The position numbers were made by a program, and so were the translations under genes. Of a stretch of DNA of 25,229 nucleotides, positions 3,574 through 17,984 are shown piece after piece. This stretch comes from Verrucomicrobiales bacterium (GTDB lineage: Bacteria; Verrucomicrobiota; Verrucomicrobiia; Verrucomicrobiales; DEV007). Location: NCBI GenBank assembly GCA_051270635.1, contig JBNMNB010000103.1, positions 1-25,229 of the forward strand, written 5' to 3'. A model generated the notes under the pieces. That model made no database searches. It saw only the letters and a list, made by a program, of their open reading frames with translations, and was not told where the DNA came from. Numbering within the stretch: position 1 is the first letter of the stretch; the number at the start of each line of letters is the position of its first letter.

Positions 3574-4677
3574 GTGTCACTCTGCGGTGCGGTGGCTGAT
3601 GATCTCTCCAACTCTCACGATTCCTTATCCGGCGGTGACTCACCCAGCGAAGTCAGCGATGACTATTGGATCGATCTCGCCAGGCACCCACACGATGCCT
3701 TTTTTAAGGAAATCTTCACCAATACGGAAGATGCCACCGCGTTTTTTCAATCTCACCTGCCTCCTGATGTAGTGGAATCTTGCGAATGGAGCACTCTCAA
3801 AGTGTTGCCTGGATCATTCGTGAAAAGTACGTTGCAGCAAGCGCATTCAGATCTTCTGTTCTCTGTGCAGAGCCGATCAAGAAATCCCTCTATAAGTGGG
3901 AATTCGGAGACTCGCGAATTTTTGCTTTATCTGTTGTTCGAGCACCAGAGCAATGTCGATCCCATCATGCCACTCCGGCTTCTCAGCTACATGGTACAGA
4001 TTTTTTCCGCTCATCATGAGCGACACGGCCTGCCTTTGCCACCAGTGATTGGATTCGTATTGCACCAGGGGCCGGACAAGTGGACGGTTTCGCAGCACTT
4101 TGATCAGCTATTCGATTTGCCGGATGATCCTGTAATGAAGCAGGCGCTGCTCCCGTTTCTGCCGAATTTTCAGCACGGACTTCTTGATCTAACTCAGTGC
4201 GATCCCGGGCAGGATGAGGATGTTCGTTCGGTGCGTATCGTCTTGCAACTCATGAAGCTTGCGCGCGAAAAGCGGCTTCTGGAGTTTTTTGACTGGCTCG
4301 TTATGGCCTGTCAATCATTCCTTGAGGATTTGCCATCCAGGCGGCTCGAAACTCTTCTACTCTACGCCCTGCACGCTGACAGCAATCTTGACATTGAACA
4401 GCTCGCCCGTAATGTTGAGAGCAGCAAACAACTGCAAAAACTCACTATGTCCGTAGCTGAAAAACTAAAAGCCGAGGGGAAAGCCGAAGGTAAGATCGAA
4501 GGGAAAACCGAAGGAAAGATCGAAGGTTTGTGGATTGGGCGTATTCAATTGCTTCAGACGTTGATGGGAAAAGAGGCCTCTACGGACGAAGACTTAACTG
4601 CACAGTCCATAGAGGAGCTTCAGGAAATGTTTGAGGTATTGCAGGTATCGTATGACGCGACAGTCAAGGGCAAGTAA
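3574..4677 (+). CDS. Rpn/YhgA-like PD-(D/E)xK recombination-promoting nuclease / putative transposase (Transposase_31 family) with a repetitive C-terminal tail
   Basis: N-terminal HPHDAFFKEIF matches the hallmark PHDxxFKxxF motif of Rpn family proteins. The C-terminus carries AEGKAEGKIEGKTEGKIEG repeats of the kind found in the variable tails of this family. The true start may lie downstream of 3574, because the N-terminal extension before the PHD motif is unusually long. Confidence 0.7.
   Translation: MSLCGAVADDLSNSHDSLSGGDSPSEVSDDYWIDLARHPHDAFFKEIFTNTEDATAFFQSHLPPDVVESCEWSTLKVLPGSFVKSTLQQAHSDLLFSVQSRSRNPSISGNSETREFLLYLLFEHQSNVDPIMPLRLLSYMVQIFSAHHERHGLPLPPVIGFVLHQGPDKWTVSQHFDQLFDLPDDPVMKQALLPFLPNFQHGLLDLTQCDPGQDEDVRSVRIVLQLMKLAREKRLLEFFDWLVMACQSFLEDLPSRRLETLLLYALHADSNLDIEQLARNVESSKQLQKLTMSVAEKLKAEGKAEGKIEGKTEGKIEGLWIGRIQLLQTLMGKEASTDEDLTAQSIEELQEMFEVLQVSYDATVKGK
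4473..4530 (+). repeat. Imperfect tandem 12-nt repeat (GAAGGnAAGATC-like) encoding (E-G-K-x)n in the Rpn C-terminal tail
   Basis: The sequence gccgaggggaaagccgaaggtaagatcgaagggaaaaccgaaggaaagatcgaaggt can be read directly in the window. It encodes AEGKAEGKIEGKTEGKIEG. Confidence 0.6.
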
Positions 4678-4685
4678 GCCCAAGG

Positions 4686-5312
4686 CTATTTCAATTGAAC
4701 AGCGCAGCCAGGGCAGTGCCGGGGATGGAACAGTTCCCCGAGAAATTTATCGCATGCCGGGCAGTGCCACCAAGTGTGGAGCGCGACCATGGCCATAAAT
4801 AAGAATGGGAGATTAATGAGAAGAAGGATGGAGAGGGAAAAGTGATCGACTGAGAAAGAAAGAGCTACCGAAGCGAGATTACTGAAATGGAACGCTAGTG
4901 CCAGTCTATGTTTCCATTTATTGCTCGCATGTCGGGCGTAGATCATATCTTGCTCGGCCTGCGACGTAACAGTGAATTTCTTTGCGCCGACCTGCAGTTG
5001 CTCCCCACATTGTGGGCAGAACTTGGGCTTAGAAATCTTGCCAATGTATTGGTGACATTGAGGGCAACTTGCCAGTCGCCGAGCGATGATTGCAAATCCA
5101 AGAATCGCCAGGGCTAGTCCTGCCATCAAGGGCCAAATGTTCGTTCCTTGATTGTTAGCGACAAGGAAAGTGAAGAATCCTCCTGCGACCCACAACAGGA
5201 GTAGAAAGCAAACTGCCAATACCCACTGCCGAAATCTCGATTTTCGCAATGCCTCTACATTGGCGAGAATACGCGCATCTTCGGCCGGATCAGATGTCGC
5301 GTTGATTGACAT
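4686..5312 (-). CDS. Membrane protein with tandem duplicated [2-TM + CxxC-x12-CxxC zinc-ribbon] modules; last gene of the flotillin/AAA cassette
   Basis: The protein is 208 aa. It contains two pairs of hydrophobic helices, each followed by a Cys4 ribbon with identical spacing: CPQC-x12-CPQC and CPAC-x12-CPGC. The start codon region overlaps the stop codon of the upstream giant gene by 23 nt (5290-5312) on the same strand, which suggests translational coupling. The gene is convergent with the Rpn gene, 8 nt apart. Confidence 0.6.
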   Translation of the reverse strand: MSINATSDPAEDARILANVEALRKSRFRQWVLAVCFLLLLWVAGGFFTFLVANNQGTNIWPLMAGLALAILGFAIIARRLASCPQCHQYIGKISKPKFCPQCGEQLQVGAKKFTVTSQAEQDMIYARHASNKWKHRLALAFHFSNLASVALSFSVDHFSLSILLLINLPFLFMAMVALHTWWHCPACDKFLGELFHPRHCPGCAVQLK

Positions 5313-8300
5313 CGGATTGGATGTCCACAGGAAGATCTTCGATTGTTTGCGGTTCTCGAGGAGCGCTGCCTTCGTGCACGGGGACGACTTTGATCTCCAC
5401 GTCTACCGGGACAGAGCGAAGATTTGCGATGATAGTCTCGAGTTTTTCAATAGTGACATCGGCCAGGGTGGCCGGTGCCCGTTGATGTGCGGCGGCATCA
5501 CTGAGAACGGTGCCAATTTGCTTCAAGTTCTCGGAGAATAGGCTTAGCTGACCGACAACTCTGGAGACGGGATCATTGTCGCCACCACCGCCGAGAATTT
5601 GATTTCGGCCGAAAGTTTCTTTGATCGAATTCCAGCGCGCAGTCCCAGTTTCATCCAGTGTGCTTTCGAGTTCCTTGAATTTGAGAAGGTTGGATTCGGC
5701 GCCAGTTGTCAGCGTTTGCGATTCGTTTTCGTAGTGGTCGACGATCACGCCCTCGACTTCCTCTGCGGTCATCATCGCGAGGATTTTCTCGGCGATGCGG
5801 TTCATGTTCCGATACGAACCCTGTAGTTTGAATGCAGGCTCGGTGCGGTAATTATCCTCCATCGCGGCAGATCGTATGTATTCAAGATTCACCCGCAGGA
5901 TGGTGTCGCGCACGCGCATCAGCTTCTCGACGATCGAGACCAATTCGTCGATTTCTTCCATGGCGTAGTTGCCCTCGAAATCGATACTTTCACGTGAACC
6001 GCTATCGGCAATTTTCATGATCGCGTAGACGTCCTGCTGGCTGCGGCTGGCGAGCTTGCTAAGCACTGGATTCGATGTGAGTGAGTTCTCGATATAGGAA
6101 TCTTTGAAGACACTGCCGTGACCGCCGATGATATCGCCGAGGTTGTAAGTGTCGGCGCGGTTCGCCAGCATGTCGGGAATCTGGAACTTGCCACCGCTCT
6201 CTGTGTAGGGATTACCAGCCATGACAACGGCGACTTTCTTGCCACGCAGGTCGTAGGTGCGCGGCTTGCCATTGTAGACGCCTTCGATCTTGCGCTGGGC
6301 GTCACACAGCGAGATAAATTTTTGCAAAAATTCTGGGTTACAGTGCTGGATATCATCCAGGTAGATCATCACATTGTCTCCCATCTCCAGCGAGAGATTC
6401 AACTTGTTCACTTCCTCACGCGCGCTGGCATTTGGGGCTTCGTCAGGATCGAGGGAGGTGACGTGGTGGCCAATGGCCGGGCCATTGATCTTCATAAAGG
6501 TGATGCCGAGCCGGTTGGCGACATACTCCATGAGCGTGGTTTTACCATAGCCAGGCGGGGAGATGAGCAAAAGCATGCCCATGCGATCGGTACGCGTGTT
6601 GACTCCGGCGGTTCCCAGTTGTTTCGCAAGGTTATCGCCGATCATCGGCAGATAGACGGAATCGAGAAGCCGATTGCGAACAAACGAAGACATGACGCGC
6701 GGCTTGAACTCGTCGAGACGCAGTGATGCGCGTCTATTCTCGAGCAATTCGCCCTTCAAGTGACCATAGGATTCGAACCTGGGCACGGATACTTCGTCGA
6801 AGTCACGCATCTTCTCCAGGAAGCCGTTGTAGTGCAGCGTGTAGGTGCCGCCTTCAGTCAATGCGTGCGATCCTGACATTCCTTCAATGTCTGCACGAGT
6901 GGCGATCTCGATGACGTCGTTGGAGCGGAATCCGCCTCGGAGTAAGTGCGCCGCGGCCTCATGCAGGACATCTTCGGAAATCGTGTTACTTTCGCCAGCC
7001 GTGAATCCGCGCAGCCAGTCGAGCATGATTTCGAAGCGCCCAGTTGGATCAGTTTCCAGAGCGCCCCAGGCTTCGTCGAATTTTTTTGCCAGGCGTTTTC
7101 CCGTGAGTGCCGTTTTGAAATGGTTGACGGCTTCTGCGGCTTCGAGAGAGACCACGGGATTGCCAGGCGACGTGAACTGGTGAAACAAGTAACGGGCTGC
7201 AGAACCAGTAATCGCCGGGCGGAAGGGGAGCCGTGGATGATTCTGCAGGAATGCCTCAATCACTTCGGTAAACTCACTGATACTAGCGTGATCATTGGTC
7301 GCTGTTGGGAATGATTCCCGCACCAGCCTGAACGATCGCAGTTTCGCCTCCAGCGTGTGCTTTGCTTCAATGTCATCCCATTGTTCCCAGAAGAGAAGTC
7401 CACAGGCGCGTGTGCCAGGAGCATAGCGCAGTAATCCGGCAGCCAGGTGAATCGGCAACAGGCTATCAAGCAGCAGTGCGCAGTCACGATCGTGAACTCC
7501 CTTGGTGTAGCCTTCGGAATAGCGAGGCCCCATGAATCGCTGAATGGACTCCAGCTGCTCGCTCTCCGGCTGTGCCGCGAAGTCGTCTACTGAGTCGGTG
7601 CCAAGCAATGGATCGCTGCCGGATTCCAGTGCGCGTAGAATCCGCCATGCTAGAAATTCAACACGATAAACGGCCTCATTTTCTGATACAGTTTCCTGCT
7701 CCCACACTTCATGGGTAGCGAGGAATGCGGGATCGGTGATCTTTTCGAAGAAATTCGTTCCTGCCAGGTGAAACAACATCGTATCATCACGGGGCACGAT
7801 CGACAGTTCCAGTTCCTGCGTATTGGTGGCGAATCGATGGTTGCCAAGCCGGATGACATTAGTGCCATCTTCGAACAATTCCTGTCTGTCTTTCAGCTGG
7901 CGGACAGCATCTTCACGCAGCGTCTTGAGGCGCGTCTGGACATCACCGGCTTTCACCGAATCTCCCAGTTCCTCGAGTTGCACGATAATGTTGCGCACCT
8001 TTTCGATCATCAAATCGGATGCGAGATACCCGTTGATGTCGTTGATGGTTTTGAAACCTTCCAGCCGATGACGAATACCGTTGAGCACGCGATCGGCGGA
8101 CTTTGCCAAAGTTCCTGCCCGGCGATTGCGGGCTTCCAGCAGCGACTGCTTGCGCGATTCGAAGGCGCTATAGACTTCTTCGCGCTTGGTCGTGAGTTGT
8201 TCGACGTATTCTTCGAACTCGCTGAACCTGCCTTCCAACTCTTCGAGCTGGATCATCGTCTTGGTAAGGAATTCGTCGCACTTCTCAGGTGCGCTGCAGA

Positions 8301-10425
8301 GATCCAGATAATTGATGACCGATTGGTTGAGAAGTTTCAACTGAGCGGTGAACTGAGCAGCGCCTTCCGTGCGTGACAGATTCTTCTTTCGATTCTTCAG
8401 TTCTACTTTAACCTGATTCAGAGTCGAATAGATGGAAGAAACGTCGTCAATAATCTTCGTCGTATGAGTGGCATCCTCGATCTTGAGGTTGCTGACGATG
8501 TCGATGAGCATTTCTAACTCAGCGCCCGCAGCATCCAGTTCCTTTTGCGTTTCAGTGGCCTCAGCAGCCTTGTTGATATCAGGAATGCGTTCCTGCTGGA
8601 CCGCGACCTTTTGCCGGTAGGGATCCAAGGCTTCGTCACGCAGCAGGAACTCGACACAGAGGTTCGACTCACGCTCACTTGCATCCTGGCTCTGTTCTTC
8701 GAGTGAATCGACCAACTTGAGATCAACGTAGCGCAGGTCGCGGAGCGAAATGATTTCGCCGCGCACAGTGCGGAGTTCGGCCAAGTTGTGCACGAACCCG
8801 AGGATATCATCGGGCCGTGTGTGCTCAACGGTTTTCAGGATTTTCGCGGTCTTATCGCGCACCCGGGCAGTCTCTTCGCGGGTGTTCTTGCGCACACGCT
8901 GGACTTTGTCGAATTCGTCGATCGCGGCCTGTGCGGCGCGATTGATCTCTGTCAGTGCACTCTTGAGGTCATGCGCTTCGTTGCGACCGGCCCAGAAGTA
9001 GGCGTCGCTGATGTCGCCGGTGATCTTGACTAAATCGACATAGAGATCGGCATAGCTGTCGTCTTTTCCGAGAAGAGTGAGGACTTGCTGGCACTCGGCC
9101 ATGCAGCGCACGATCTCTGCATTGCCCACCTTGTAGAGAAACGAATCCTGTTGCGTATCAGGCGCGAACGATTCTTCAATGTACGGCGTCTGCCATACTT
9201 GCAGCGCGTGATGCTTTTGCGGTTGTTCCTCATCGCGGAAATAAATCAGCTCGCCATTGGCGAACAGGCTGTAACCATTGCAGATGATCGGCGTCGACAC
9301 TGAACGCGCGATCAAATTGTAAGGCATAAGTATGTAGTCGCCGCTGATGCGATGGTAGAATACGTAGAGGAAATCCTCTCCGTTAGACGATGCGATGCGA
9401 CGGTCGAAGTACATATTCGAAAGGTCGTTTTCGAAGAGTTTGAATTCGCCGCTCTGCAGGTAGTAGCCGTTGGAGAAAATGATTCCGTGATCGTCGGGCA
9501 GGAGGACACACGAATGGCGAATGGAATCGATCCGCCGCACCTCGCGCGTCTTTTCATTGAAGACAAGAATACGTTCGTCCTTTTCCTGATACGGTTTGAT
9601 GTTGAGGATAATCAGGCTGCCGACGAAAGCGTAGAAAATTTCCGCATCGTCGAGCGTCTGGTCGACATGGTCAACCGGCTCGGTGTAGATGCCTTCGCCA
9701 GACTCCGTGTTGTCCTCCAGCTTGACCGTTAGATCACCACCGATGGTTTCGACGAAGATGCGGTCTTCAATTGAAATGTGTGGATGATCGCCCACGCGCT
9801 GCATGTCGCGGTGTGCGCGTTTCCATTCGAACTCACGCTGTGGTGGGAATGCGTATTCGTGATCGAAACGGTTGCCGAGATACTCAAGTGTTCCGTTCCC
9901 GTCGATGAGGAATTTGAACGTCTTGCGATCGTCGATCGACTTTCCGACTTGGAACGCCATGTAAAGGTTCGGCCCGATGACCATGAACTTTACGAAGACC
10001 GTCTCCCGATAGAACTTGTAGAGATATTTAAAATCTTCAGCGAAGGCGCTGTCTTCGACAATCGTATCGAACGGGCACTCGTGGAATGTATGCGACTGCG
10101 GATCAAACGAGTAGCCAGCAAAGACATCACTGATGTCAGTTGTCGACTTTAAGCCAAGCTGGACATTATATGCGAACAGAAACCGATTGGCTCCGATCGA
10201 GATCATGTCGCGCGGTGTGCAATTATTCTGCGTGGTGACGCGATCAGTGGCAATCAGCTGAGCTTCAATTGCTCCGAAAACGTCTTGGCGATCGGTATTG
10301 AGTTGATTCAGGCGCTGACGCAGATTCGTGCCGTGCTTCTCCATCCGCGCACGGATGATCTCATAGGCACCGCCTTCCAGCTGATCCTGCTGCTTAGGTG
10401 GTTCTTCCAGGATGACTTCAGACAT
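5290..10425 (-). CDS. Giant (1711 aa) multidomain protein with a single MoxR/AAA_5-type AAA+ ATPase core, a long central coiled coil, and N- and C-terminal domains of unknown function
   Basis: This is a single uninterrupted ORF. Walker A is LLLISPPGYGKTTL at about nt 6535-6575 (residue ~1292). Walker B plus the MoxR-like DEINRA-equivalent is VMIYLDDIQHCNPEFLQKF at about nt 6340-6372. Sensor-1 and the arginine-bearing segment VAVVMAGNPYTESGGKFQIPDMLANRADTYNL lie at about nt 6121-6215. This segment aligns with the MoxR/AAA_5 consensus fVlATqNPiEqEGTYpLPEAqLDRF. Residues ~480-840 (about nt 7900-9000) are heptad-rich coiled coil. A possible GGAGA ribosome-binding site sits 9 nt upstream of ATG 10425. 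Confidence 0.85.
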   Translation of the reverse strand: MSEVILEEPPKQQDQLEGGAYEIIRARMEKHGTNLRQRLNQLNTDRQDVFGAIEAQLIATDRVTTQNNCTPRDMISIGANRFLFAYNVQLGLKSTTDISDVFAGYSFDPQSHTFHECPFDTIVEDSAFAEDFKYLYKFYRETVFVKFMVIGPNLYMAFQVGKSIDDRKTFKFLIDGNGTLEYLGNRFDHEYAFPPQREFEWKRAHRDMQRVGDHPHISIEDRIFVETIGGDLTVKLEDNTESGEGIYTEPVDHVDQTLDDAEIFYAFVGSLIILNIKPYQEKDERILVFNEKTREVRRIDSIRHSCVLLPDDHGIIFSNGYYLQSGEFKLFENDLSNMYFDRRIASSNGEDFLYVFYHRISGDYILMPYNLIARSVSTPIICNGYSLFANGELIYFRDEEQPQKHHALQVWQTPYIEESFAPDTQQDSFLYKVGNAEIVRCMAECQQVLTLLGKDDSYADLYVDLVKITGDISDAYFWAGRNEAHDLKSALTEINRAAQAAIDEFDKVQRVRKNTREETARVRDKTAKILKTVEHTRPDDILGFVHNLAELRTVRGEIISLRDLRYVDLKLVDSLEEQSQDASERESNLCVEFLLRDEALDPYRQKVAVQQERIPDINKAAEATETQKELDAAGAELEMLIDIVSNLKIEDATHTTKIIDDVSSIYSTLNQVKVELKNRKKNLSRTEGAAQFTAQLKLLNQSVINYLDLCSAPEKCDEFLTKTMIQLEELEGRFSEFEEYVEQLTTKREEVYSAFESRKQSLLEARNRRAGTLAKSADRVLNGIRHRLEGFKTINDINGYLASDLMIEKVRNIIVQLEELGDSVKAGDVQTRLKTLREDAVRQLKDRQELFEDGTNVIRLGNHRFATNTQELELSIVPRDDTMLFHLAGTNFFEKITDPAFLATHEVWEQETVSENEAVYRVEFLAWRILRALESGSDPLLGTDSVDDFAAQPESEQLESIQRFMGPRYSEGYTKGVHDRDCALLLDSLLPIHLAAGLLRYAPGTRACGLLFWEQWDDIEAKHTLEAKLRSFRLVRESFPTATNDHASISEFTEVIEAFLQNHPRLPFRPAITGSAARYLFHQFTSPGNPVVSLEAAEAVNHFKTALTGKRLAKKFDEAWGALETDPTGRFEIMLDWLRGFTAGESNTISEDVLHEAAAHLLRGGFRSNDVIEIATRADIEGMSGSHALTEGGTYTLHYNGFLEKMRDFDEVSVPRFESYGHLKGELLENRRASLRLDEFKPRVMSSFVRNRLLDSVYLPMIGDNLAKQLGTAGVNTRTDRMGMLLLISPPGYGKTTLMEYVANRLGITFMKINGPAIGHHVTSLDPDEAPNASAREEVNKLNLSLEMGDNVMIYLDDIQHCNPEFLQKFISLCDAQRKIEGVYNGKPRTYDLRGKKVAVVMAGNPYTESGGKFQIPDMLANRADTYNLGDIIGGHGSVFKDSYIENSLTSNPVLSKLASRSQQDVYAIMKIADSGSRESIDFEGNYAMEEIDELVSIVEKLMRVRDTILRVNLEYIRSAAMEDNYRTEPAFKLQGSYRNMNRIAEKILAMMTAEEVEGVIVDHYENESQTLTTGAESNLLKFKELESTLDETGTARWNSIKETFGRNQILGGGGDNDPVSRVVGQLSLFSENLKQIGTVLSDAAAHQRAPATLADVTIEKLETIIANLRSVPVDVEIKVVPVHEGSAPREPQTIEDLPVDIQSDVNQRDI

Positions 10426-10552
10426 TCTTTAATTTCTCCGGTGCAGTGGCTTCATTGAACGACGGACGTTCGATATCGGTATCCGCATTCTCTTGTGTGA
10501 CGGTGGTCGATTTCCCCAGTTGTTTATGGGAGGATGACTACCCGTCTCTTGA

Positions 10553-12643
10553 TCACTTTTTAGTGACTGCATCGATGATTTCGCCAGCATTGGTTCCGGC
10601 CACGCCGAATCGTTCTGCTGCACCACGTAGTCCGCGTAGCTGCGCCGCATCGTCATCGCCAGCACTGCCGATCATTTGCCCCAGCAAGGCGGACACGGTC
10701 AGGTTTTTGAGATCCTCACTGGTGATGCCGAACTGATCGATCCAATTCGAGAACTGGGAACGAAAATAGTCAGGATCGCCGTTGAAGAACGTCTCTTTGA
10801 CATCCTGCAGGGCACGACTGTTGCCAATCATGCGATCAACCGATTTGCCCGTAGAAATGGCACCGGTGATCTTATCGAAGAATGCGATGTCGCCACCGAC
10901 AATGTCGATTTTCGCCGTGCGCAGGGCTTCGCCCACCACACTTGCCTGCTCGGCCGCGATGTCGCGATGCACATTGATCTGTGCCAGATCGACCTGCTTC
11001 TCTTTGTCGAGACGCAGTTTGAATTCTTCGTGCGACTGACCAGCTTCGTTAAAGAGCTTCATCGCTGCTGCTTTCTTGTCGATGCCTTCTGCCTCGGCCA
11101 TTGCCTTGAGACGTGCGACTTCCGCTTCGATCGAACCCTGCTTCTCGGCAGCCTCGGCCTTAGCGATCATTACCTGGGCTTCACCCAAACCAATGGCGGC
11201 TGATTCTGCAGCGACACCTTCAGCGAGCGACTTCTTCGCAGCGGCCTGCTTGGTAGAGGCTTCCTGCTCGGCTTCGGAAGCAATGAGGATTTCTTCAGCA
11301 TGCAGCTCAGCAGATTTTTTCGAAGCTTCAGCAGCTTTGACGCGCTCATAGAGCAACTGATCAGCGTGCAATTGAGCAGCTTCCTTGTCGGCTTCCGCTT
11401 GTTTGAGCACTTTCACCAGCACTTCCTGTGCATCCTTTTCGGCAAGGGTTATCGCGACCTGCTTCTCACGGTCGGCACCTGCGAACGCTTCCGTATCGAG
11501 GATTTTCTGCTGCTCGATCACCACTGTCTTCTCGACTGCGACACGTTCTTTGATGACGTCCTGAATGTTCTTCTTCTCGATCTCGACTGCTTTATCTCGC
11601 TCGATCCCTTTCAGCGATGTCAAGCGATCGCGCTCGATCACCTCCAGCATGCGATCGCGCTCGACCCGCTCAAGCTCGACCGCATCAGTGCGATCTTTGT
11701 TGCGCTCAGCGACCAGCACTTGACGGAATTTATTCTGCTCGGCGACTTCGATTTCTTCCTCAGCAGCAATGCGTGCCTGCTCAGATCTCTGACGCTGTTC
11801 CTGGCGAACTTTTTCGGCCTCGGCCTGCTCGCGTGACTGCACGGTTTCGATTTCACGGCGCTGTTTCGCTTCTGCTTCAGCCAGTTGCCGCTCCAATTCG
11901 AGTATCGCTTCCCTTGTCTCTACGTCTTGTTGTTTGATCACGCGTTCCTTGTCTCGCTGAATCTGGTTCGCCAACTTGGCCTGTGCTGCCGTGCGGTCAG
12001 TGATCTTCTTAATACCTTCTGCATCGAGAATATTGTCAGGATCCAGGGAATCGAGCGGTGTTTGCTCCAGGTGGTCGATCGAGGCATCGTCGAGAATGAA
12101 TCCGTTCAAGTTGGTGCCAATGATCTTGATGATCTCGTCGCGGAAGGTGTCGCGCTCGTCGTAAAGTTCAACGAATTCGAATCGTTTACCGACAGTCTTC
12201 AGGGCCTCGGAAAATTTGGCATCGAACAAGGCTTGAATCTCCTTCTCGTTGGATGCGCGGTCACAGCCGATCAATTGGGCCACATGCTCGACGTCCTTGG
12301 CTGTTTTATTAACTCGCACGAAGAAGACGACCTTGATATCGGCTCGCATGTTATCTTTACAGATCAGTCCATTGTTGGCGCTGCGATCGATGATGATGCG
12401 CTTGACGGAGATGTCCATGATCTCAACACGGTGAATGATTGGAAAAACGAACATGCCGGAGAAATTGACACGCGTTCCTCCCATTCCATTTCTGATGAGC
12501 GCACGCCCTTGATCGACCTTGCGCCAGCAGCGCATTGCGATCACCGCAATGAAAAGGACAAAACCAATCAAGAGCGGGATCAGAAACATTCCCAATCCCT
12601 TAAAGAGTTCTGTCCCTGCTTGTGCCAACAATGATTCATTCAT
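10553..12643 (-). CDS. Flotillin-like SPFH/Band-7 protein (YqiK/FloT-like) with extended EA-rich coiled coil
   Basis: The protein has an N-terminal TM helix (FLIPLLIGFVLFIAVIAM) and an SPFH domain (ICKDNMRADIKVVFFVRV...). It then has a long charged coiled coil with flotillin-type EA repeats (AEAEAKQRREIETVQSREQAEAEKVRQEQRQR...; KAEAAEKQGSIEAEVARLKAMAEAEG). At 696 aa it is longer than E. coli YqiK or B. subtilis FloT. Confidence 0.9.
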   Translation of the reverse strand: MNESLLAQAGTELFKGLGMFLIPLLIGFVLFIAVIAMRCWRKVDQGRALIRNGMGGTRVNFSGMFVFPIIHRVEIMDISVKRIIIDRSANNGLICKDNMRADIKVVFFVRVNKTAKDVEHVAQLIGCDRASNEKEIQALFDAKFSEALKTVGKRFEFVELYDERDTFRDEIIKIIGTNLNGFILDDASIDHLEQTPLDSLDPDNILDAEGIKKITDRTAAQAKLANQIQRDKERVIKQQDVETREAILELERQLAEAEAKQRREIETVQSREQAEAEKVRQEQRQRSEQARIAAEEEIEVAEQNKFRQVLVAERNKDRTDAVELERVERDRMLEVIERDRLTSLKGIERDKAVEIEKKNIQDVIKERVAVEKTVVIEQQKILDTEAFAGADREKQVAITLAEKDAQEVLVKVLKQAEADKEAAQLHADQLLYERVKAAEASKKSAELHAEEILIASEAEQEASTKQAAAKKSLAEGVAAESAAIGLGEAQVMIAKAEAAEKQGSIEAEVARLKAMAEAEGIDKKAAAMKLFNEAGQSHEEFKLRLDKEKQVDLAQINVHRDIAAEQASVVGEALRTAKIDIVGGDIAFFDKITGAISTGKSVDRMIGNSRALQDVKETFFNGDPDYFRSQFSNWIDQFGITSEDLKNLTVSALLGQMIGSAGDDDAAQLRGLRGAAERFGVAGTNAGEIIDAVTKK

Positions 12644-12694
12644 GATAGTTTCGATATGACCGTCTTCCGATGGTGTGGGTTAGTGGTAGTTGTT

Positions 12695-13336
12695 TTAAAG
12701 TGCTCGGACGAAATAGGCGCCGGTCTTTTCGTCTTCATCAATGACGAGACACTCGTCACCTTTCTTGAGCCGTGCATTGCCTTCGCGAACTCGGACATTG
12801 ATGAGTAGGGGAGCCCCGCGCATTTCGATTTCCACTTGCCCCAGGTCCGTGGAAACACTGCCGCTGCGGACGATGCCGGTGCGGCCAATGATGGGTTCTT
12901 GAGTTTCTTTGTCCGCGTCTTTCATTTTCTGCAAGACTCTGGCCATGGGCGCAGTGACCGCCTTGGCGATGAATAAGCTCAATACGAAACTGGCAAAGCC
13001 GACCAGCACCGCAGCGACAACACTGCCAGCTCCAGTGAAGAAGAAATTTCCAACAATTGACAGAACCCACATGCTGATAGCCATGATGCTGATCACGATC
13101 ATAACGGGCACTTGGTCAACGTTCACAAATCTCAACAAGGCCGCGAAAATGCTTCCGCCGCCGTGGCCGGAGAGGTCCCCATCTGCATCGATTTCCGTGT
13201 CGGCATCCAGATCGAATTCAAATCCATCACCGAAAACTCCGATACTGGCGACGATCCAGTAGATGACTACCAAGCATAGCAACACCGTCATCGGCAGATT
13301 ATACCAGGCAGTTGCTTCGTGGAATAGTTCAGTCAT
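12695..13336 (-). CDS. NfeD-like / YqiJ-like (DUF1449) inner-membrane protein with C-terminal OB-fold; the flotillin partner protein
   Basis: The layout matches YqiJ: an N-terminal TM helix, an acidic D/H-rich loop (FDLDADTEIDADGDLSGHGGGS), two more TM helices, and a C-terminal beta-rich OB-like segment (GRTGIVRSGSVSTDLGQVEIEMRGAPLLINVRVREGNARLKKGDECLV). It is immediately upstream of the flotillin gene on the same strand, 51 nt away. Confidence 0.7.
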   Translation of the reverse strand: MTELFHEATAWYNLPMTVLLCLVVIYWIVASIGVFGDGFEFDLDADTEIDADGDLSGHGGGSIFAALLRFVNVDQVPVMIVISIMAISMWVLSIVGNFFFTGAGSVVAAVLVGFASFVLSLFIAKAVTAPMARVLQKMKDADKETQEPIIGRTGIVRSGSVSTDLGQVEIEMRGAPLLINVRVREGNARLKKGDECLVIDEDEKTGAYFVRAL

Positions 13337-13514
13337 GTTTAAATTCTGGGAATGATCGCTGCCAACTCGCTACGATTGAGAGATACTTCCGTAATTGAGC
13401 GTAGCTTACACATTCGCACCAGTGAGGCCATTATAATAGGTTAGATGCTTTGTACCGAGTAGACACGATTTTTCGATACCCAAGGCGAAGAATAATGGCT
13501 AAGGTCGACCACAG
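13337..13514. promoter_or_regulatory. Divergent intergenic region between the cassette and the HTH gene. It holds a palindromic ATTATAAT -10-like element and an inverted/direct repeat motif.
   Basis: TATAAT can be read on both strands at about 13430-13437. At about 13357-13406 the motif cGCTACG-ATTGAG-N13-ATTGAG-CGTAGC is visible: a 6-bp inverted repeat flanking a direct repeat. Position is consistent with promoters for both the nfeD-like gene (minus strand) and the HTH gene (plus strand). Confidence 0.35.
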
Positions 13515-14000
13515 ATGAGCGAATCCCACGAAGTATTAAAAGAGGCGTTTGAGAAAACCAGTCCTAAGGAAATTGCCGCTGAGTTGGCTGTTTCTTTATC
13601 GCTTGTCTATAAATGGGCACAGCCGAACACGGAATTGGGGAGCGGATCTCGTAATCCGCTCGATCGTGTGCATGAGCTGATGCGCTTGACCCAGGATCCG
13701 CACATCATCCAGTGGCTGTGTCAGCAGGCAGGCGGGTACTTTGTGCGAAACCCTGAAAGCAACTGCAAAGAAGGTTTCGAGGTCGTGCCGGCGACCAATG
13801 AGATCGTCCAGCAGTTCGCCGATCTCCTTTCGATCATCACCAAGGCATCACTGGATAATACGATTACGCCCGCCGAATCGGCACAGATCCGCAAATGCTG
13901 GGATGAGCTCAAGGCCTATACCGAAGGATTTGTCACTTGCTGTGAAGAGGGCGATTTTGAGAATATCGACCTGAAGCGGGCAGCGCACTCCTCCAGTTGA
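13515..14000 (+). CDS. Small helix-turn-helix DNA-binding regulatory protein (phage CII-like style HTH), transcribed divergently from the cassette
   Basis: The protein is 161 aa. The HTH-like segment is PKEIAAELAVSLSLVYKWAQP. The C-terminal part is acidic and Cys-containing (CWDELKAYTEGFVTCCEEGDFE). I cannot assign a family confidently. Confidence 0.55.
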   Translation: MSESHEVLKEAFEKTSPKEIAAELAVSLSLVYKWAQPNTELGSGSRNPLDRVHELMRLTQDPHIIQWLCQQAGGYFVRNPESNCKEGFEVVPATNEIVQQFADLLSIITKASLDNTITPAESAQIRKCWDELKAYTEGFVTCCEEGDFENIDLKRAAHSSS

Positions 14001-14020: not shown

Positions 14021-14830
14021 CTAAGCAGACAGCTCGCTGTTTTCGGTCATCCAGTCCTTCAACAAAGGAAGGGCATCAAGCAACTCAGCGCGCAGAACAT
14101 CGCGTAGTTCCTGGCTCAGGATATCGCGAGAATCAGTATTCGCAGGCGTCTGCTCGAGCTGGATACGCAATCCAAGAACGACGGGTGATCTTCCAGCGCG
14201 AGTCAAAGCTTCGCTTATTTCATCCTTGTGCGGCTCTAACAGGCGCTTTGGCACTTTAAAGATTCGCGCAACTTGCACGTAGGCTTCCGCCACTTTTCCT
14301 AAAGGGACATGCAGCCCAGCTTCAATGAGGTGCTCAAGAAATGGACGCACTTGAGTGTCTTGCTCAAACATGGCATCATGCAGTGCGCGTTGGTAGCGTT
14401 GACCAGCTTTCCGGTAAGCTTCCCGTGCTTCCACCACTTTATCGTTAGACCATACTTGGCGCAGTGCGCGACGCAGTTGGCGTTGCTCGGCCATGGAAAG
14501 CTTATCCAGCTCGGTGCGCAGGACTTCCCGCCGCCGGGCTAGTGAACTGGTGGTCGTGGACTGAGCCTCGATCTGAGAAGCGCCGGGCAGTTCGCTGTAT
14601 TCGGGCAAGCCGCCCAGTTCAGGAACGCTGGAAAGATCTGGCATATCATTGCCACCTGGCATGTCGCCTGGCATATCGGGCATTCCTGAGCCGAATGGCG
14701 GAGGCATGCTGTCGTCCAGCGGGTTCTGAGCATAGGCCAAAGTCAGACATCCGCCTGCTGCTAAAGTCAGCAGGGCAAGCGGCAATGGCAGACGGGGAGT
14801 GGAGGAAAGGAGTGGAATCCAGAGTTGCAC
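14021..14830 (-). CDS. Putative periplasmic protein with Met/Pro-rich linker and LTxxQ-like (Spy/CpxP-style) helical C-terminal region
   Basis: The ORF is open to 14986, but a signal-peptide-like segment (LPLPLALLTLAAGGCLTLAYA-QNP) appears only about 55 codons in. The longer version would overlap the SD-supported start of the divergent gene at 14932. I therefore propose the GTG start at 14830 (VQLWIPLL...), with the start remaining uncertain. Motifs include MPDMPGDMPGGNDMPD and LSMAEQRQLRRALRQ. Confidence 0.45.
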   Translation of the reverse strand: MQLWIPLLSSTPRLPLPLALLTLAAGGCLTLAYAQNPLDDSMPPPFGSGMPDMPGDMPGGNDMPDLSSVPELGGLPEYSELPGASQIEAQSTTTSSLARRREVLRTELDKLSMAEQRQLRRALRQVWSNDKVVEAREAYRKAGQRYQRALHDAMFEQDTQVRPFLEHLIEAGLHVPLGKVAEAYVQVARIFKVPKRLLEPHKDEISEALTRAGRSPVVLGLRIQLEQTPANTDSRDILSQELRDVLRAELLDALPLLKDWMTENSELSA

Positions 14831-14931
14831 ACGGGATAGAACCACAGGATTGCGAAACTGTCGCGGTCGATCTGAATTTGGTTGAATCTTGCGTTCAACG
14901 TCCACTAAGGCTAGGGGAGGGATACCTACAT

Positions 14932-15768
14932 ATGTCAGATTCAAATGTGCCAGCCGACTTGAGTCAGGACGACTCACCAGAATCACCTGCCGAAACCTTC
15001 GGCAGCAGTGCTGAAGTGAAGGCGGATTCCTCGCCGCCAGCCAAGAAGTCGAAAGAGAATCCGTTGATGAACATTTTGATCAATGTTCTGATTCCTGTAG
15101 TGGCACTCAGTGCTTTAAGTAAGGACGGTGGTAAACCTTGGCACATTGGCCCGCTGTGGGGGATGATCGTAGCCGTCACATTTCCAGTGGTTTATGGAAT
15201 CTGGGACTTGATTCGCAGTCGCAAAGTCAACTTCTTCTCGGTAGTTGGGATCATCGGAGTTCTGTTGACTGGAGGAATCACGCTTTATGTATGGAACGCT
15301 GACGGGACTGTGAAAGAGAGTGCGGCTTTCCTTTTTGCCATAAAAGAGGCGACGATCCCGATTGTGTTCGGAATCCTCATCTTGGGTTCGCACTTCACCG
15401 GCAAGCCCCTGATGCGGTTGTTTCTATACAATCCTGATTTGTTTGACGTCGGCAGGATTGAGAAGGCGATTGCCAAGCGCAATGAGGAGACCGACTATCA
15501 AAAGGCGCTGTTGAAAACGACCTTCATCATGGCTGGATCATTTTTCTTGAGCGCCTGTTTGAACTACGGGCTGGCGATGTATTTCTTGAAAGGAGCAGAT
15601 AGTACCAAAGAAGCATACAATGCCGCGATTGCAAAACTGACCGGCTGGGGATATCTGGTCATCGGCCTTCCCTGCATGATCATTTGGTTTATTGCCGGCT
15701 GGTTACTGGTGCGTCAGTTGAGGAAGCTGACCGGCCTGGAGTTTGAAGATCTGACTGTTCCTCGCTGA
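14932..15768 (+). CDS. Multi-pass inner-membrane protein (about 6-7 TM), family unassigned
   Basis: ATG 14932 is preceded by GGAGG 12 nt upstream. The acidic N-terminus is followed by several hydrophobic helices (ILINVLIPVVALSAL; IGPLWGMIVAVTFPVVYGIW; FFSVVGIIGVLLTGGITLYVW; ...). The upstream part of the ORF (14464-14931) is antisense to the neighbouring gene and is treated as non-coding. Confidence 0.6.
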   Translation: MSDSNVPADLSQDDSPESPAETFGSSAEVKADSSPPAKKSKENPLMNILINVLIPVVALSALSKDGGKPWHIGPLWGMIVAVTFPVVYGIWDLIRSRKVNFFSVVGIIGVLLTGGITLYVWNADGTVKESAAFLFAIKEATIPIVFGILILGSHFTGKPLMRLFLYNPDLFDVGRIEKAIAKRNEETDYQKALLKTTFIMAGSFFLSACLNYGLAMYFLKGADSTKEAYNAAIAKLTGWGYLVIGLPCMIIWFIAGWLLVRQLRKLTGLEFEDLTVPR

Positions 15769-15797
15769 GTTTCCTAAATTAAATGGGAGTGCCAATA

Positions 15798-17984
15798 ATG
15801 AAGCCCTACCGCATCGGAGTCTCGTTCATTGCAGGGCTTGCTCTTTGGACATTATCGGTGCTTCAGGCAATAGGGGATGAGACCCATTACCGTGTCGAGG
15901 GCATGGCCAGTTCCAGCGCCGCGCAGCTTGAAGCCGTGCGCCTTCTGGTGCCGTGGGTTTCCGTTTCGACCACTACTGGGCAAATGCAGGCGCGGGTCGT
16001 TTTTCGCAATGTCAGTCGAACTCCAGCGCAGCCCTTTGGACTAATGGGCAAGGACGATTATCAGCTGTTATTGGGCAATGGAAAACGGCTGTCGTCGTCG
16101 TCGAGTTCTGATTCGCTGGCGATTGTCATTCCTGCCGAAGGCCTCGCTCCAACGCAATCGAATAGCGGAGTGCTCACTTTTGACCTGCCTGCTGAGGTGA
16201 CGAAATTCGGTGACTCGGCTTCGCTCCAGGTATCGCGGTTTCAGCCGGTTGCTGTCCAGTTGGTGCCTGGTCGGGTTTTTTCACCTCCGCCGCTGGGAGT
16301 GCAACTACCAGTGCAGCAGGTGCTGCGCAGCTCGCACGATTCGATGTCGCTGGTCGCATTGGAAGTCGATTCCGCGATGATCACTGCTGAGGGAAAATTG
16401 GTGCTGTCGATAGGCTTTCGCAATGTTGGTCGCGCCAATCTGAATGTCAGCACACGTCTCTCTGGCAAGGATGCACGTCTGGCCGACGGTGAGCTGAATG
16501 TGCACGCGCCCGATGCCATTTCTCCCGCACTGACGACCAGTATCATTCCCGGCACTGGCGTCTTGGAGGCCGGGACACCGCATAGTGGAACAGTCAGATT
16601 TTCGATTTCACATCCCGTCGCAGCTGAGCAGTGGCAATTTTTTTATCCTGGCTATCAGCGCATGGGAGCACAGTGGAATGCGCAGAAGAACCGCTTTTTG
16701 GTGAAGGTGTTAGACGATCCTGCTGTTCCCCCTGTCAATGCGTCGGGAGCCGGCGGTGAACTTGCTGCCGATGAACGGCGATTCAGAAAAATTGATGCTC
16801 TACTGGGACGTCTGAACAAGAATATCGCAGCTGGAAATACTAGCGCTTACCTTGCTGCACTGCCGCCTCACCTGCGGGAATCGCATGCTCGCCTACTGCG
16901 TGAGCATATCCGAGTGGGCGCGCGTGACCTTGAGTATCGACTTCCTCCGCTGCAAAAGTTCCAGCCTTCTTCCGATGGGGTGGTTCGAAACGTCCAGCTC
17001 TCGCTACGCTATCAACTGAATGACGGAGCGCAGAATAGGCCGATGGTGGCCTCAGCCGTAGCCAGCTTTGCCGGAGACAGGGGGCAATGGAGGATGGTCG
17101 ATTGTCGTTTTGTAAGAGCTGCACCATTCTGGTTGCTCGGCTACGTCGACGTCCATAAGACAGACCATTTTACGATATTTTACCGCGCAGGCACCGCGTC
17201 CGCAGATCGCATTGGCAAGGCTGGACGCCAACTTGAGAAAGCATTCCGCAATCTGAAGCGTAAAGGGCTCCCGGTCGAAGATCGCAGCCTTGCCATTTTT
17301 CTCGATAAGCCCGAGGATTTTACGACGGTCGCGGGAATGGATGCCGATCGATTCGATGGCGCGGCCATGCTGCATTATGAAAATGTCGACGGTACTTTTG
17401 AAGTGCGGAATCGCGTGATCTACATCAATGACGCACGCTTTGTTACGGGGCAACGCCTGTGGGGAATGCAGGACAGGCAGGCAACGATCACTCATGAACT
17501 AGTGCACCTTTACTTGAGCAAAGTGACCCGGCCGTGGATTCCCTCCTGGGTCACCGAGGGCGTAGCGGTTCATTTTGCCGGACAACACAATTCGTGGTCA
17601 CGCCGAGCACTGCGCAAGAATCCCTACTTCGAAAAATTGACGCTGACAGAATTAAGCAAGCAGCACACGCTATCGGAAGGAAGTGCCGACGCGAATGCCA
17701 CGCAAGCAGGATATCTATTGTCAGGAGAAGCCTTTGCGATTCTCGACAAGAAAGGCAAACAACGGAAGCTACTCGAATTCTATCGCAGTTACGCCGGATT
17801 TACATTCGAGAGTATCCGCGCAGCACTATCTTCTCAAGGTGCGAAGTTGCCTGCTGGACAGGCTCCCAGTATCGCAACTGCCGGCCCAGTCCTGACAGAC
17901 ATCCTTCTGCTACAACACTTCGGTACCGACATCAAGACTCTTGACTCTGAAGTCAAGGCATCGGCTCGTAAGCGTGGATTCTAG
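15798..17984 (+). CDS. Secreted protein with HExxH zinc-metallopeptidase motif (DUF1570-like)
   Basis: The signal peptide is MKPYRIGVSFIAGLALWTLSVLQA. A GGGAG ribosome-binding site lies 8 nt before ATG 15798; the alternative ATG is 15783. QATITHELVHLYL contains HExxH, with a downstream EGVAVHF glutamate. Otherwise the protein is of unknown function. Confidence 0.65.
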   Translation: MKPYRIGVSFIAGLALWTLSVLQAIGDETHYRVEGMASSSAAQLEAVRLLVPWVSVSTTTGQMQARVVFRNVSRTPAQPFGLMGKDDYQLLLGNGKRLSSSSSSDSLAIVIPAEGLAPTQSNSGVLTFDLPAEVTKFGDSASLQVSRFQPVAVQLVPGRVFSPPPLGVQLPVQQVLRSSHDSMSLVALEVDSAMITAEGKLVLSIGFRNVGRANLNVSTRLSGKDARLADGELNVHAPDAISPALTTSIIPGTGVLEAGTPHSGTVRFSISHPVAAEQWQFFYPGYQRMGAQWNAQKNRFLVKVLDDPAVPPVNASGAGGELAADERRFRKIDALLGRLNKNIAAGNTSAYLAALPPHLRESHARLLREHIRVGARDLEYRLPPLQKFQPSSDGVVRNVQLSLRYQLNDGAQNRPMVASAVASFAGDRGQWRMVDCRFVRAAPFWLLGYVDVHKTDHFTIFYRAGTASADRIGKAGRQLEKAFRNLKRKGLPVEDRSLAIFLDKPEDFTTVAGMDADRFDGAAMLHYENVDGTFEVRNRVIYINDARFVTGQRLWGMQDRQATITHELVHLYLSKVTRPWIPSWVTEGVAVHFAGQHNSWSRRALRKNPYFEKLTLTELSKQHTLSEGSADANATQAGYLLSGEAFAILDKKGKQRKLLEFYRSYAGFTFESIRAALSSQGAKLPAGQAPSIATAGPVLTDILLLQHFGTDIKTLDSEVKASARKRGF

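Follow-up and report, generated by a model that had tools for sequence, protein, structure and literature searches.

The conserved unit in this 25,229-nucleotide Verrucomicrobiales MAG contig (the window) is a set of three genes, in the order YqiJ-type NfeD, YqiK-type flotillin and giant ATPase. On balance, it is best read as an "abbreviated", PspA-less three-gene operon of the PSP envelope-stress network, whose giant protein would use ATP to remodel flotillin/NfeD assemblies under envelope stress; a remodelling or stress role that is ATP-driven and tied to the membrane had already been proposed in an earlier sequence-only reading of this DNA and, from the linkage to flotillin and NfeD, it is still the best reading. 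The same reading took the system to be undescribed, which does not hold: the three-gene operon, including its "abbreviated" form, was described computationally by Ravi et al. 2024 (PMC11237479), who tied it to the phage-shock membrane-stress network and found the versions lacking PspA to be widespread. The operon has thus been known from comparative genomics since 2024, and the family is uncharacterised experimentally, as no experimental study of the giant ATPase family or its operon was found in the literature. A recheck on the sequence reproduced exactly the ORF coordinates, the intergenic gaps (51 nt and 127 nt) and the 23-nt stop/start overlap between the giant and zinc-ribbon genes first noted for the four minus-strand genes; co-transcription of the three core genes is inferred only from this spacing. 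The features of the locus are as follows.

13515..14000 (+): CII-like (Phage_CP76) HTH protein, divergently transcribed
12695..13336 (-): YqiJ/YuaF-type short NfeD, 213 aa, first operon gene
10553..12643 (-): YqiK-type flotillin, 696 aa
5290..10425 (-): giant ATPase, 1711 aa, DUF3686 + DUF7902 + AAA family, third and last conserved operon gene
4686..5312 (-): zinc-ribbon ORFan, 208 aa, outside the conserved system

Gene order is what defines the unit. The 80 related loci are the best-scoring matches of a pattern-based scan and are skewed to closer relatives. The flotillin gene lies directly upstream of the giant gene, on the same strand, at 57 of 60 loci, and the NfeD gene lies upstream of the flotillin gene at 52 of 60; these 60 loci represent at least seven phyla, with members in Verrucomicrobiota, Planctomycetota, Bacteroidota, Desulfobacterota, Kiritimatiellota, Omnitrophota and Clostridia; the order NfeD, flotillin, giant is also kept in the three distant family members checked for it (29-32% identity over the N-terminal domain). 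The linkage of the flotillin/NfeD pair to a giant AAA+ protein, proposed from this single locus, therefore reaches the deepest branches of the family, and chance adjacency of the giant gene, which the proposal had named as its own refutation, is ruled out by the 57 neighbourhoods. Pairwise distances between flotillins and between giant proteins correlate as well (Pearson 0.80, 52 loci). Exceptions are few: three loci (L032, L046, L049) carry the giant gene with no flotillin gene within 6-10 kb, and NfeD is missing from five Limisphaerales/Pedosphaera-type loci. No gene downstream of the giant gene is conserved across loci.

The two smaller proteins of the core keep the identities first given to them. 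The product of 12695-13336, read as NfeD/YqiJ-like, matches Pfam YqiJ_N just above the cutoff (E 3.8e-5, 24.3 bits; cutoff 23), and the HMM of its family recovers E. coli YqiJ at 3.1e-13; its transmembrane segments are N-terminal and its soluble β-domain C-terminal. The 696-aa product of 10553-12643 is confirmed as a flotillin by profile methods only: Pfam Band_7 goes undetected in 20 of 20 family members tested and a PDB sequence-profile search gave no match, but hhalign aligns flotillin family A2 with E. coli YqiK over residues 28-412 (probability 100%, E 7.5e-40) and the family HMM matches YqiK at 9.6e-71, the match being confined to positions 13-461 of a 715-position profile. Homologues bear the names flotillin or YqiK in NCBI, JGI and UniRef. 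The protein is composed of an N-terminal TM/hairpin, the SPFH domain, a Glu/Ala-rich coiled coil and a conserved C-terminal region of ~250 aa, which is family-specific and has no aligned counterpart in E. coli YqiK.

The 25 kb of the window hold no PspA. At 15-16 Bacteroidota loci the operon reads CesT_Tir_1, PspA, NfeD, flotillin, giant, and the place of the CII-like regulator is taken by a divergent, repressor-like HTH_3 + Peptidase_S24 gene; Popp et al. 2022 (PMC9239133) link PspA, Band-7/FloT, NfeD and HTH regulators. In four loci the operon is followed downstream by polyamine/PSP genes, in a block of DUF4178, DUF350 and 7TM-spermine-synthase, and in one (L085) by TelA. A rival reading has the giant AAA+ protein act chiefly on polymers of PspA (ESCRT-III-like), making it a bacterial Vps4 analogue for which flotillin and NfeD are no more than a membrane platform. 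Such an arrangement is a serious but distinctly less probable possibility; it draws on the presence of PspA in the same operon at 16 Bacteroidota loci, on a PspA gene that follows the giant gene after 27 nt at one locus (L038), on a JGI homologue of the giant protein labelled "phage shock protein A", and on the view of Ravi et al. (PMC11237479) that associations of PspA with AAA+ proteins reflect an ATP-dependent remodelling of membranes similar to that by Snf7/Vps4.

The genes around the core bear on its origin. The Rpn nuclease gene and the divergent HTH gene reported as flanks are both present, as Transposase_31 and Phage_CP76/CII-like by Pfam (Phage_CP76 E 2.3e-8). The divergent CII-like gene is retained in both closest relatives (L081 and L082), a homologue neighbours the operon at five more loci (L001, L003, L010, L020 and L029, the L001 copy being Phage_CP76), and its product is a candidate regulator of the operon. 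Phage-type regulators of this kind, CII-like or CI/LexA-like HTH + S24, together with the adjoining Rpn gene and with PD-(D/E)XK and IS200-like insertions between the flotillin and giant genes at some loci, would suit an anti-phage defence or abortive infection cassette, in which the giant propeller-ATPase senses infection and flotillin/NfeD act at the membrane. This is improbable, however: PADLOC gave no significant match on the cassette or its flanking genes, its sole match among the four proteins being a 14-bit one at the level of a Walker A motif; GC content is even throughout the window and the surroundings are housekeeping genes (ArgJ, KdsB, PyrG, SOD, QueD-like); identity across phyla, about 43-64% for the giant protein and 39-73% for the flotillin, is unusually high for defence genes; and the cassette is carried by most sampled Verrucomicrobiales relatives and looks vertical. 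The same even GC, housekeeping neighbours, lack of a significant PADLOC match and cross-phylum conservation lend no support, as far as the core goes, to the accessory or mobile origin first suggested for the cassette; only the Rpn gene and the zinc-ribbon ORFan look like local additions, outside the machine.

The giant protein belongs to a family of more than 3,300 homologues, with intact members of ~1,600-1,930 aa; homologues from different phyla show 46-64% identity to it. The AAA+ domain, named earlier as its only recognisable enzymatic module, is not the sole one that can be identified: Pfam adds DUF3686 (E 1.3e-180) and DUF7902 (E 1.1e-26) to AAA (E 8e-8) and AAA_5 (E 7.4e-5). Its models comprise a β-propeller, a helical rod that resembles spectrin, a further helical domain and the AAA+ module, with these elements.

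9193..10251 (-): β-propeller, residues ~59-411, inside DUF3686
7873..9141 (-): helical rod, residues ~429-851, includes DUF7902, spectrin-repeat-like three-helix bundles
6046..6678 (-): AAA+ ATPase module, residues ~1250-1460, with a pre-sensor-1 β-hairpin
6535-6561: Walker A, SPPGYGKTT, residues 1289-1297
6343-6363: Walker B, YLDDIQH, residues 1355-1361, Asp-Asp, not Asp-Glu
Residues 1402-1406: sensor-1, MAGNP
Residues 1422-1425: Arg finger, in NRAD

The β-propeller is presumed to be a head that binds a partner or substrate. The module, as modelled, is a true AAA+ fold, and its Walker A, Walker B, sensor-1 and Arg finger are at least 90% conserved among 76 homologues; as the Walker B motif has Asp-Asp instead of Asp-Glu, hydrolysis may be slow or regulatory. 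Its nearest folds are NorQ/CbbQ/midasin, Hsp100 and RuvB. The initial description as MoxR/AAA_5-like stands in so far as AAA_5 passes its cutoff of 22 bits with 23.2, and falls short in that RuvB ranks first in Foldseek; "MoxR-type" is fair for the nearest fold only and is no family membership. The RuvB rank, the family name "DNA repair ATPase" at NCBI, the Pfam title of DUF3686 ("ATPase involved in DNA repair") and the LexA-type HTH + S24 regulators beside the operon in Bacteroidota could together point to a RuvB-like DNA repair ATPase, its adjacency to flotillin reflecting membrane tethering of a DNA-processing activity. This is very unlikely, given that RuvB_N reaches 23.7 bits, under the Pfam cutoff of 27, that the RuvB models of NCBIfam, whose cutoffs are 282-299 bits, reach 21-24, that no DNA-binding domain was detected in the protein, that no paper in the literature backs the name, and that the conserved partners are all membrane or PSP proteins.

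The zinc-ribbon protein has the tandem features ascribed to it, namely two [TM pair + CPxC-x12-CPxC] repeats with hydrophobic segments before each ribbon and halves that align to each other (E 9e-8); its ORF has the lowest in-frame codon score of the window, yet above the off-frames. That it anchors the giant ATPase in a four-component machine, as the four-gene cassette of the sequence-only reading implied, is scarcely credible despite its coding-like frame bias and the same-strand overlap of its start with the giant stop: the overlap sits in a C-terminal tail of the giant protein that is not conserved, the gene is found neither at any of the 80 related loci nor in the two closest relatives (giant protein 87% and 79% identical), a search of 5.8 billion proteins recovered nothing but the protein itself, and an analogous CxxC or TM protein does not recur downstream (a CxxC protein in just 1 of 69 loci). 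The four-component architecture is effectively refuted as a general rule and could hold at most as a strain-specific add-on; the ORFan, known from this organism only, is not a component of the machine.

For the preferred reading, a remodeller of flotillin/NfeD assemblies, the following mechanism can be proposed. Flotillin and NfeD would form an oligomeric scaffold at the cytoplasmic face of the inner membrane, and the giant protein would oligomerise via its AAA+ ring, its long spectrin-like arms and β-propeller heads reaching this scaffold, with the family-specific C-terminal region of the flotillin as the likely contact point. ATP may be spent on assembling, opening or disassembling the flotillin scaffold, or on extracting and refolding clients held on it. 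FloA-NfeD stabilises unfolded proteins ATP-independently (Ukleja et al. 2024, PMC11222466); the net effect of the giant ATPase would be to add an energy-driven step to an otherwise ATP-independent holdase. Expression is probably stress-controlled via the divergent regulator, CII-like here and of the LexA/CI-like self-cleaving repressor type in Bacteroidota.

The closest known system is the operon of Ravi et al. 2024 (PMC11237479), typified by the neighbourhood of Dokdonia donghaensis ANH61663.1. The likeness lies in the three core proteins, their order and orientation and the domain architecture of the ATPase; the full layout, including the divergent cHTH + protease regulator, is reproduced by the Bacteroidota loci, while the window, which lacks CesT/Tir and PspA and has a CII-like regulator rather than HTH + S24, fits the widespread "abbreviated operon". 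As the published account is purely computational, this comparison is one of architecture, not mechanism. The two-gene operons yqiJ-yqiK of E. coli and yuaF-floT of B. subtilis share the order and orientation of NfeD and flotillin, with YqiJ/YqiK homologues; in E. coli, however, no giant ATPase follows and sibD/ibsD come next, and the flotillin of the window is ~140 aa longer than YqiK, which leaves its C-terminal ~250 profile positions unmatched.

Functional coupling of an SPFH scaffold to an inner-membrane AAA+ ATPase would be shared with HflK/HflC-FtsH, in which an SPFH cage surrounds an AAA+ protease. By comparison with FtsH, neither a peptidase domain nor an FtsH-like TM anchor was detected in the giant protein, which is five times larger per AAA+ module; coupling in the window is genetic, via a shared operon, whereas ftsH lies outside the hflKC operon. 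In comparison with the MoxR family (NorQ, CbbQ, RavA) and the AAA modules of midasin/dynein, the giant protein is 1,711 aa long against about 300 aa, its operon lacks a VWA partner gene, the helix-2 insert is not visible in its model, and Hsp100/Clp and RuvB score nearly as well for its AAA+ module. Vps4-ESCRT-III/Snf7 and the PspA-linked AAA+ ATPases are conceptual analogues, an AAA+ motor being genetically coupled to a membrane-remodelling polymer; the giant protein is from a different AAA+ lineage than Vps4, has no MIT domain, and belongs to an operon in which PspA is optional, occurring in some lineages, whereas flotillin is nearly obligatory.

The four minus-strand ORFs of the cassette lie exactly where the sequence-only reading had placed them; they are listed here with the two flanking plus-strand genes and with the Walker B motif of the ATPase, hereafter called the giant protein.

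3574-4677, plus strand: Rpn/YhgA-like (Transposase_31) gene, convergent with the zinc-ribbon ORF
4686-5312, minus strand: zinc-ribbon ORF, 208 aa
5290-10425, minus strand: giant ATPase ORF, 1711 aa
6343-6363, minus strand: Walker B motif YLDDIQH, residues 1355-1361 of the giant protein
10553-12643, minus strand: flotillin ORF, 696 aa
12695-13336, minus strand: NfeD-like ORF, 213 aa
13515-14000, plus strand: CII-like (Phage_CP76) HTH gene, divergent from the operon

Gaps of 51 nt and 127 nt separate the NfeD gene from the flotillin gene and the flotillin gene from the giant gene, and the giant and zinc-ribbon genes overlap by 23 nt; a single transcript for the operon is presumed and unproven. 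The 178-nt divergent intergenic region between regulator and operon (13337-13514) contains only short repeat matches, probably due to chance, and a scan for promoters and terminators returned counts at or below shuffle expectation. GC content stays level along the window (0.49-0.56), and the rest of the gene neighbourhood is of an ordinary chromosomal kind (ArgJ, KdsB, PyrG, an M14 peptidase, a QueD-like PTPS, DUF218 and SOD). The cassette has no megablast match in 5,426 E. coli genomes, which rules out an enterobacterial locus despite a GC content of ~52%. Three ORFs adjoining the CII-like gene (14021-14986, minus strand; 14464-15768 and 15783-17984, plus strand) have neither a Pfam nor a PADLOC match; since the first two, of 321 and 434 aa, overlap, only one of them is likely to be real. 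In L082, one of the two closest relatives of the locus, a 461-aa gene without Pfam match occupies the position equivalent to that of the 434-aa ORF and is a candidate counterpart by position alone.

The NfeD-like protein passes the Pfam YqiJ_N model narrowly (24.3 bits against a curated cutoff of 23), and an HMM built from the NfeD homologues of related loci retrieves E. coli YqiJ at 3.1e-13; the gene for this short membrane protein lies immediately upstream of the flotillin gene and is co-oriented with it, as in NfeD-flotillin operons of the YqiJ-YqiK type. Pfam Band_7/SPFH matches neither the window flotillin nor any of 20 family members, and comparison with the PDB, by single sequence and by family profile, gives just a compositional coiled-coil match to QmcA. 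Alignment of the flotillin family with E. coli YqiK by hhalign reaches a probability of 100% (E 7.5e-40, residues 28-412), the family HMM retrieves YqiK at 9.6e-71, and the homologues are entered in databases as flotillin or YqiK. Judged by these profiles, the flotillin identity is correct although the standard models fail and profile-profile comparison is needed to see it; both assignments made by the sequence-only reading, flotillin and NfeD/YqiJ-like, are thus borne out. YqiK spans positions 13-461 of the 715 in the family profile, the remaining ~250 being a conserved region specific to the subfamily. In the giant-linked flotillins, these C-terminal ~250 residues (residues ~440-696 in the window, 10553-11320, minus strand) carry the nearly invariant motifs HEEF-L-L-K (538-547) and IDIVGG (579-584). 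The region is unmatched by E. coli YqiK, which makes it a candidate for docking of the ATPase.

An AAA+ ATPase had been thought to be the sole recognisable module of the giant protein, a view refuted by Pfam, which assigns residues 35-477 to DUF3686 ('ATPase involved in DNA repair', E 1.3e-180) and residues 598-681 to DUF7902, in addition to AAA, AAA_22 and AAA_5 matches around residues 1282-1408. The family has more than 3,300 matches under the NCBI name 'DNA repair ATPase', a search with the DUF3686 N-domain gives 716 cluster representatives at 50% identity, and nearly all intact members are 1,600-1,930 aa long. The structural statements about the protein all depend on AF2 models whose underlying alignments are shallow (26 sequences, all ≥54% identical). 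The model of the N-terminal half (pLDDT 80) predicts a helix (18-50), a β-propeller (59-411) and then ~420 residues of long helices (429-851), while that of the C-terminal half (pLDDT 76.6) predicts a small β unit and a helical domain (~920-1235), then the AAA+ module (~1250-1460), whose α/β core bears a pre-sensor-1 β-hairpin, and further a lid and a helical domain at the C-terminus. A PspA/ESCRT-III-like fold was considered for the helical region and rejected, spectrin-like repeats being dominant instead. No transmembrane segments are predicted in the models, and Pfam finds no match to Peptidase_M41 or any other peptidase.

Among 76 full-length homologues, Walker A (SPPGYGKTT), Walker B, sensor-1 (MAGNP), NRAD, the presumed arginine finger, and LQGSYRNMNR are ≥90% conserved. 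In Walker B, Asp-Asp stands in place of Asp-Glu across phyla, presumably resembling the DnaA-type Walker B (DDIQ); to go by the motif, this may render ATP hydrolysis slow or switch-like. Foldseek places RuvB first for the AAA+ module at 3e-5, followed by ClpB, dynein, NorQ, ClpX, MCM and p97; by sequence profile, the giant protein has Walker-A-level matches only in the PDB (E ~4e-4), too weak to classify it.

A scan of one genome per species, over 185,579 species, gave at least 591 stretches encoding relatives of the giant protein, of which the best 80 (46-64% identity), the top scorers of this pattern-seeded scan, were analysed; these belong to Verrucomicrobiota, Planctomycetota, Bacteroidota, Desulfobacterota, Kiritimatiellota, Omnitrophota and Clostridia. 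Where enough upstream DNA is present (60 loci), a flotillin homologue lies directly upstream on the same strand in 57 and an NfeD homologue is present in 52; L032, L046 and L049 have neither within the flank, and five Limisphaerales/Pedosphaera-type loci run from flotillin to giant without NfeD. The order NfeD, flotillin, giant is kept in the three deep-branch members sampled (N-domain 29-32% identical), and pairwise distances of flotillin and giant are correlated (Pearson 0.80, 52 loci). Together, this linkage, the order kept in deep branches and the correlated distances show that the adjacency is not due to chance, so that the gene-neighbourhood check of the giant homologues upholds their proposed association with flotillin and NfeD. 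No conserved gene family follows the giant gene among the loci, and ORFs found in the flotillin-giant gap are heterogeneous insertions. Small genes of unrelated kinds have repeatedly entered this spacer (L004:9516-9935, L008:9535-9909, L028:76-501, L033:2287-2661 and L005:6802-7251, as well as L030, L045 and L076). Four Verrucomicrobial loci have PD-(D/E)XK_3 ('GxxExxY'-type) genes there, Roseibacillus has an IS200-like Y1 transposase, and lipoprotein-like ORFs occur in Bacteroidota; insertions of 0.4-2.4 kb are tolerated by the operon at this junction.

The identity of the genes and their membership in one operon can be asserted with high confidence. The role of bacterial flotillins is still debated, and they are not known to have a dedicated energy-consuming partner. 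SPFH proteins form large membrane-attached oligomers, and AAA+ modules generally form rings that remodel protein substrates. NfeD partners promote SPFH oligomerisation (summarised in PMC13086221), and the FloA-NfeD pair of S. aureus is an ATP-independent holdase for unfolded proteins (PMC11222466). One tentative reading is that the DUF3686 giant protein would be a motor dedicated to a bacterial flotillin machine, and would open, disassemble or unload the flotillin/NfeD assembly with ATP. The giant protein would form an AAA+ ring whose arms, each a spectrin-like rod with a propeller head, would engage the flotillin/NfeD scaffold, the subfamily-specific C-terminus of the flotillin being the obvious candidate for the contact site; ATP would drive assembly, opening or disassembly of the scaffold, or the extraction of clients from it, and the divergent HTH regulator would control expression. 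The specific remodelling mechanism is no firmer than a working proposal; if true, flotillins would for the first time be seen in an energy-coupled system, and those of bacteria would gain a concrete, testable biochemical cycle that combines a holdase with an unfoldase/remodeller.

A role in membrane stress, within the phage-shock-protein (PSP) network, is probable. In 15-16 Bacteroidota loci, CesT_Tir_1 (E 1e-52 to 1e-54) and PspA_IM30 (E ~1e-40) genes precede those for NfeD, flotillin and giant, with a divergent HTH_3 + Peptidase_S24 gene. In an Anaerohalosphaeraceae MAG, a PspA gene (L038:6790-7479) lies 27 nt 3' of the giant gene, and in locus L084 the distance to PspA is ~6 kb; TelA (L085:13001-14221) lies downstream of the giant gene in a deep-branching member. 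Downstream of the giant gene in L035, L048, L077 and L079 stand DUF4178, an unknown gene, DUF350 and a 7TM-spermine synthase (e.g. L048:7084-10886), and the DUF4178/DUF350/7TM-spermine-synthase block corresponds to the second class of operon in Ravi et al. (PMC11237479). Neither the window nor its Verrucomicrobial relatives have the CesT/Tir-PspA dyad; the window thereby matches the abbreviated, PspA-less form defined by the same authors (PMC11237479). That the giant protein acts instead on PspA, in the manner of Vps4, is an unlikely alternative to flotillin remodelling.

Phage defence is considerably less probable, for PADLOC-DB 2.0 gives no significant defence-model match on the cassette or its flanks: the sole match on the cassette is a 14-bit, non-significant hit of mad8 at the Walker A region, and the flanking genes have none. 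True DNA repair, as implied by the database name, is very improbable: RuvB models stay below threshold, at 23.7 bits against a cutoff of 27 for Pfam RuvB_N and, by far, at 21.5-23.6 bits against cutoffs of 282-299 for the NCBIfam models, and the name, which is without visible support, probably reflects just a weak resemblance to RuvB. The regulator gene beside the operon differs between phyla: for the window and its relatives in Verrucomicrobiota and Kiritimatiellota it is CII-like (Phage_CP76) and usually divergent, and in 15 Bacteroidota loci it encodes a LexA/CI-like HTH_3 + Peptidase_S24 protein (L034:3894-4673, L050:3877-4695). The S24 type points to induction through self-cleavage, perhaps in response to DNA damage, and this may be the family's sole connection to its 'DNA repair' name.

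The four-component machine of the sequence-only reading, zinc-ribbon protein included, is hardly credible: the linkage of flotillin and AAA+ protein holds for three genes, and the fourth is absent from all 80 best loci and from the relatives whose giant proteins are 87% and 79% identical. The zinc-ribbon protein has two CPxC-x12-CPxC motifs, each following hydrophobic segments, and its halves align with each other (E 9e-8); it matches only itself among 5.8 billion proteins, and 3' of the giant gene a comparable CxxC or TM protein is not recurrent (1/69 loci). The 23-nt overlap falls within the final ~60 codons of the giant gene, a stretch that is unconserved. Frame bias in the zinc-ribbon ORF is coding-like, yet its codon score is the lowest in the window. 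Of all well-supported genes in the window, this ORFan and the convergent Rpn/YhgA-like gene score lowest in codon usage; they stand at a synteny break, as the downstream genes differ in all close relatives. The most plausible view of the zinc-ribbon gene is that of a strain-specific neighbour, which may have been acquired along with the Rpn (Transposase_31) gene.

In several hundred species of many phyla, the operon joins a YqiK-type flotillin and NfeD to an AAA+ ATPase that is large and highly conserved, with recurrent joining to PspA, TelA and polyamine/PSP genes, and offers a natural entry point into how flotillin scaffolds are assembled, opened or emptied in envelope stress. It had been proposed as a candidate undescribed system; the layout was in fact published from comparative genomics by Ravi et al. 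2024 (mSystems; PMC11237479), who reported operons joining CesT/Tir-PspA with three further genes, YqiJ/YuaF being the prototype of the 3TM protein that the third encodes. Popp et al. 2022 (PMC9239133) likewise linked PspA with Band-7/FloT, NfeD and HTH regulators. Our literature search found no paper mentioning DUF3686 or PF12458 or tying 'DNA repair ATPase' to flotillin, and found none on YqiK, PspA and AAA+ together. The value of the window thus lies in confirmation and refinement, not discovery: added here are the quantified linkage, a domain map of the ATPase, the flotillin-specific C-terminal region, the lineage-specific regulators and the exclusion of the zinc-ribbon gene. The operon family, described computationally and experimentally uncharacterised, remains a good experimental target.

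Compared with known systems, AAA+ proteases of the FtsH type, which associate with SPFH proteins (HflK/C), possess an M41 peptidase domain and a TM anchor, whereas neither is detected in the giant protein. MoxR AAA+ proteins are ~300-350 aa long, against 1,711 aa for the giant protein (1,600-1,930 aa in its family), and the MoxR hallmark of a VWA partner gene is missing, with no conserved gene downstream or in the gap. In Pfam, AAA_5 reaches 23.2 bits (cutoff 22), a level equalled or exceeded by AAA_22 and by AAA (33.2 bits); AAA_3 is not among the models reported. The closest likeness is to the operon of Ravi et al. (PMC11237479), whose layout is reproduced by the Bacteroidota loci; the giant proteins of Flavobacteriia (L056, L067, L068, L072 and L073), found in that identical gene layout, are 48-49% identical to that of the window, which suggests that the window ATPase is homologous to the Dokdonia ATPase of those authors. 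Theirs is a β-propeller-CC-AAA+ ATPase, and the window protein is likewise predicted to have a propeller (59-411), helices (429-851) and an AAA+ module (~1250-1460); the published order YqiJ/YuaF, flotillin, ATPase is also that of the window and is held in deep-branch members too, the window being a new Verrucomicrobial case of this operon family.
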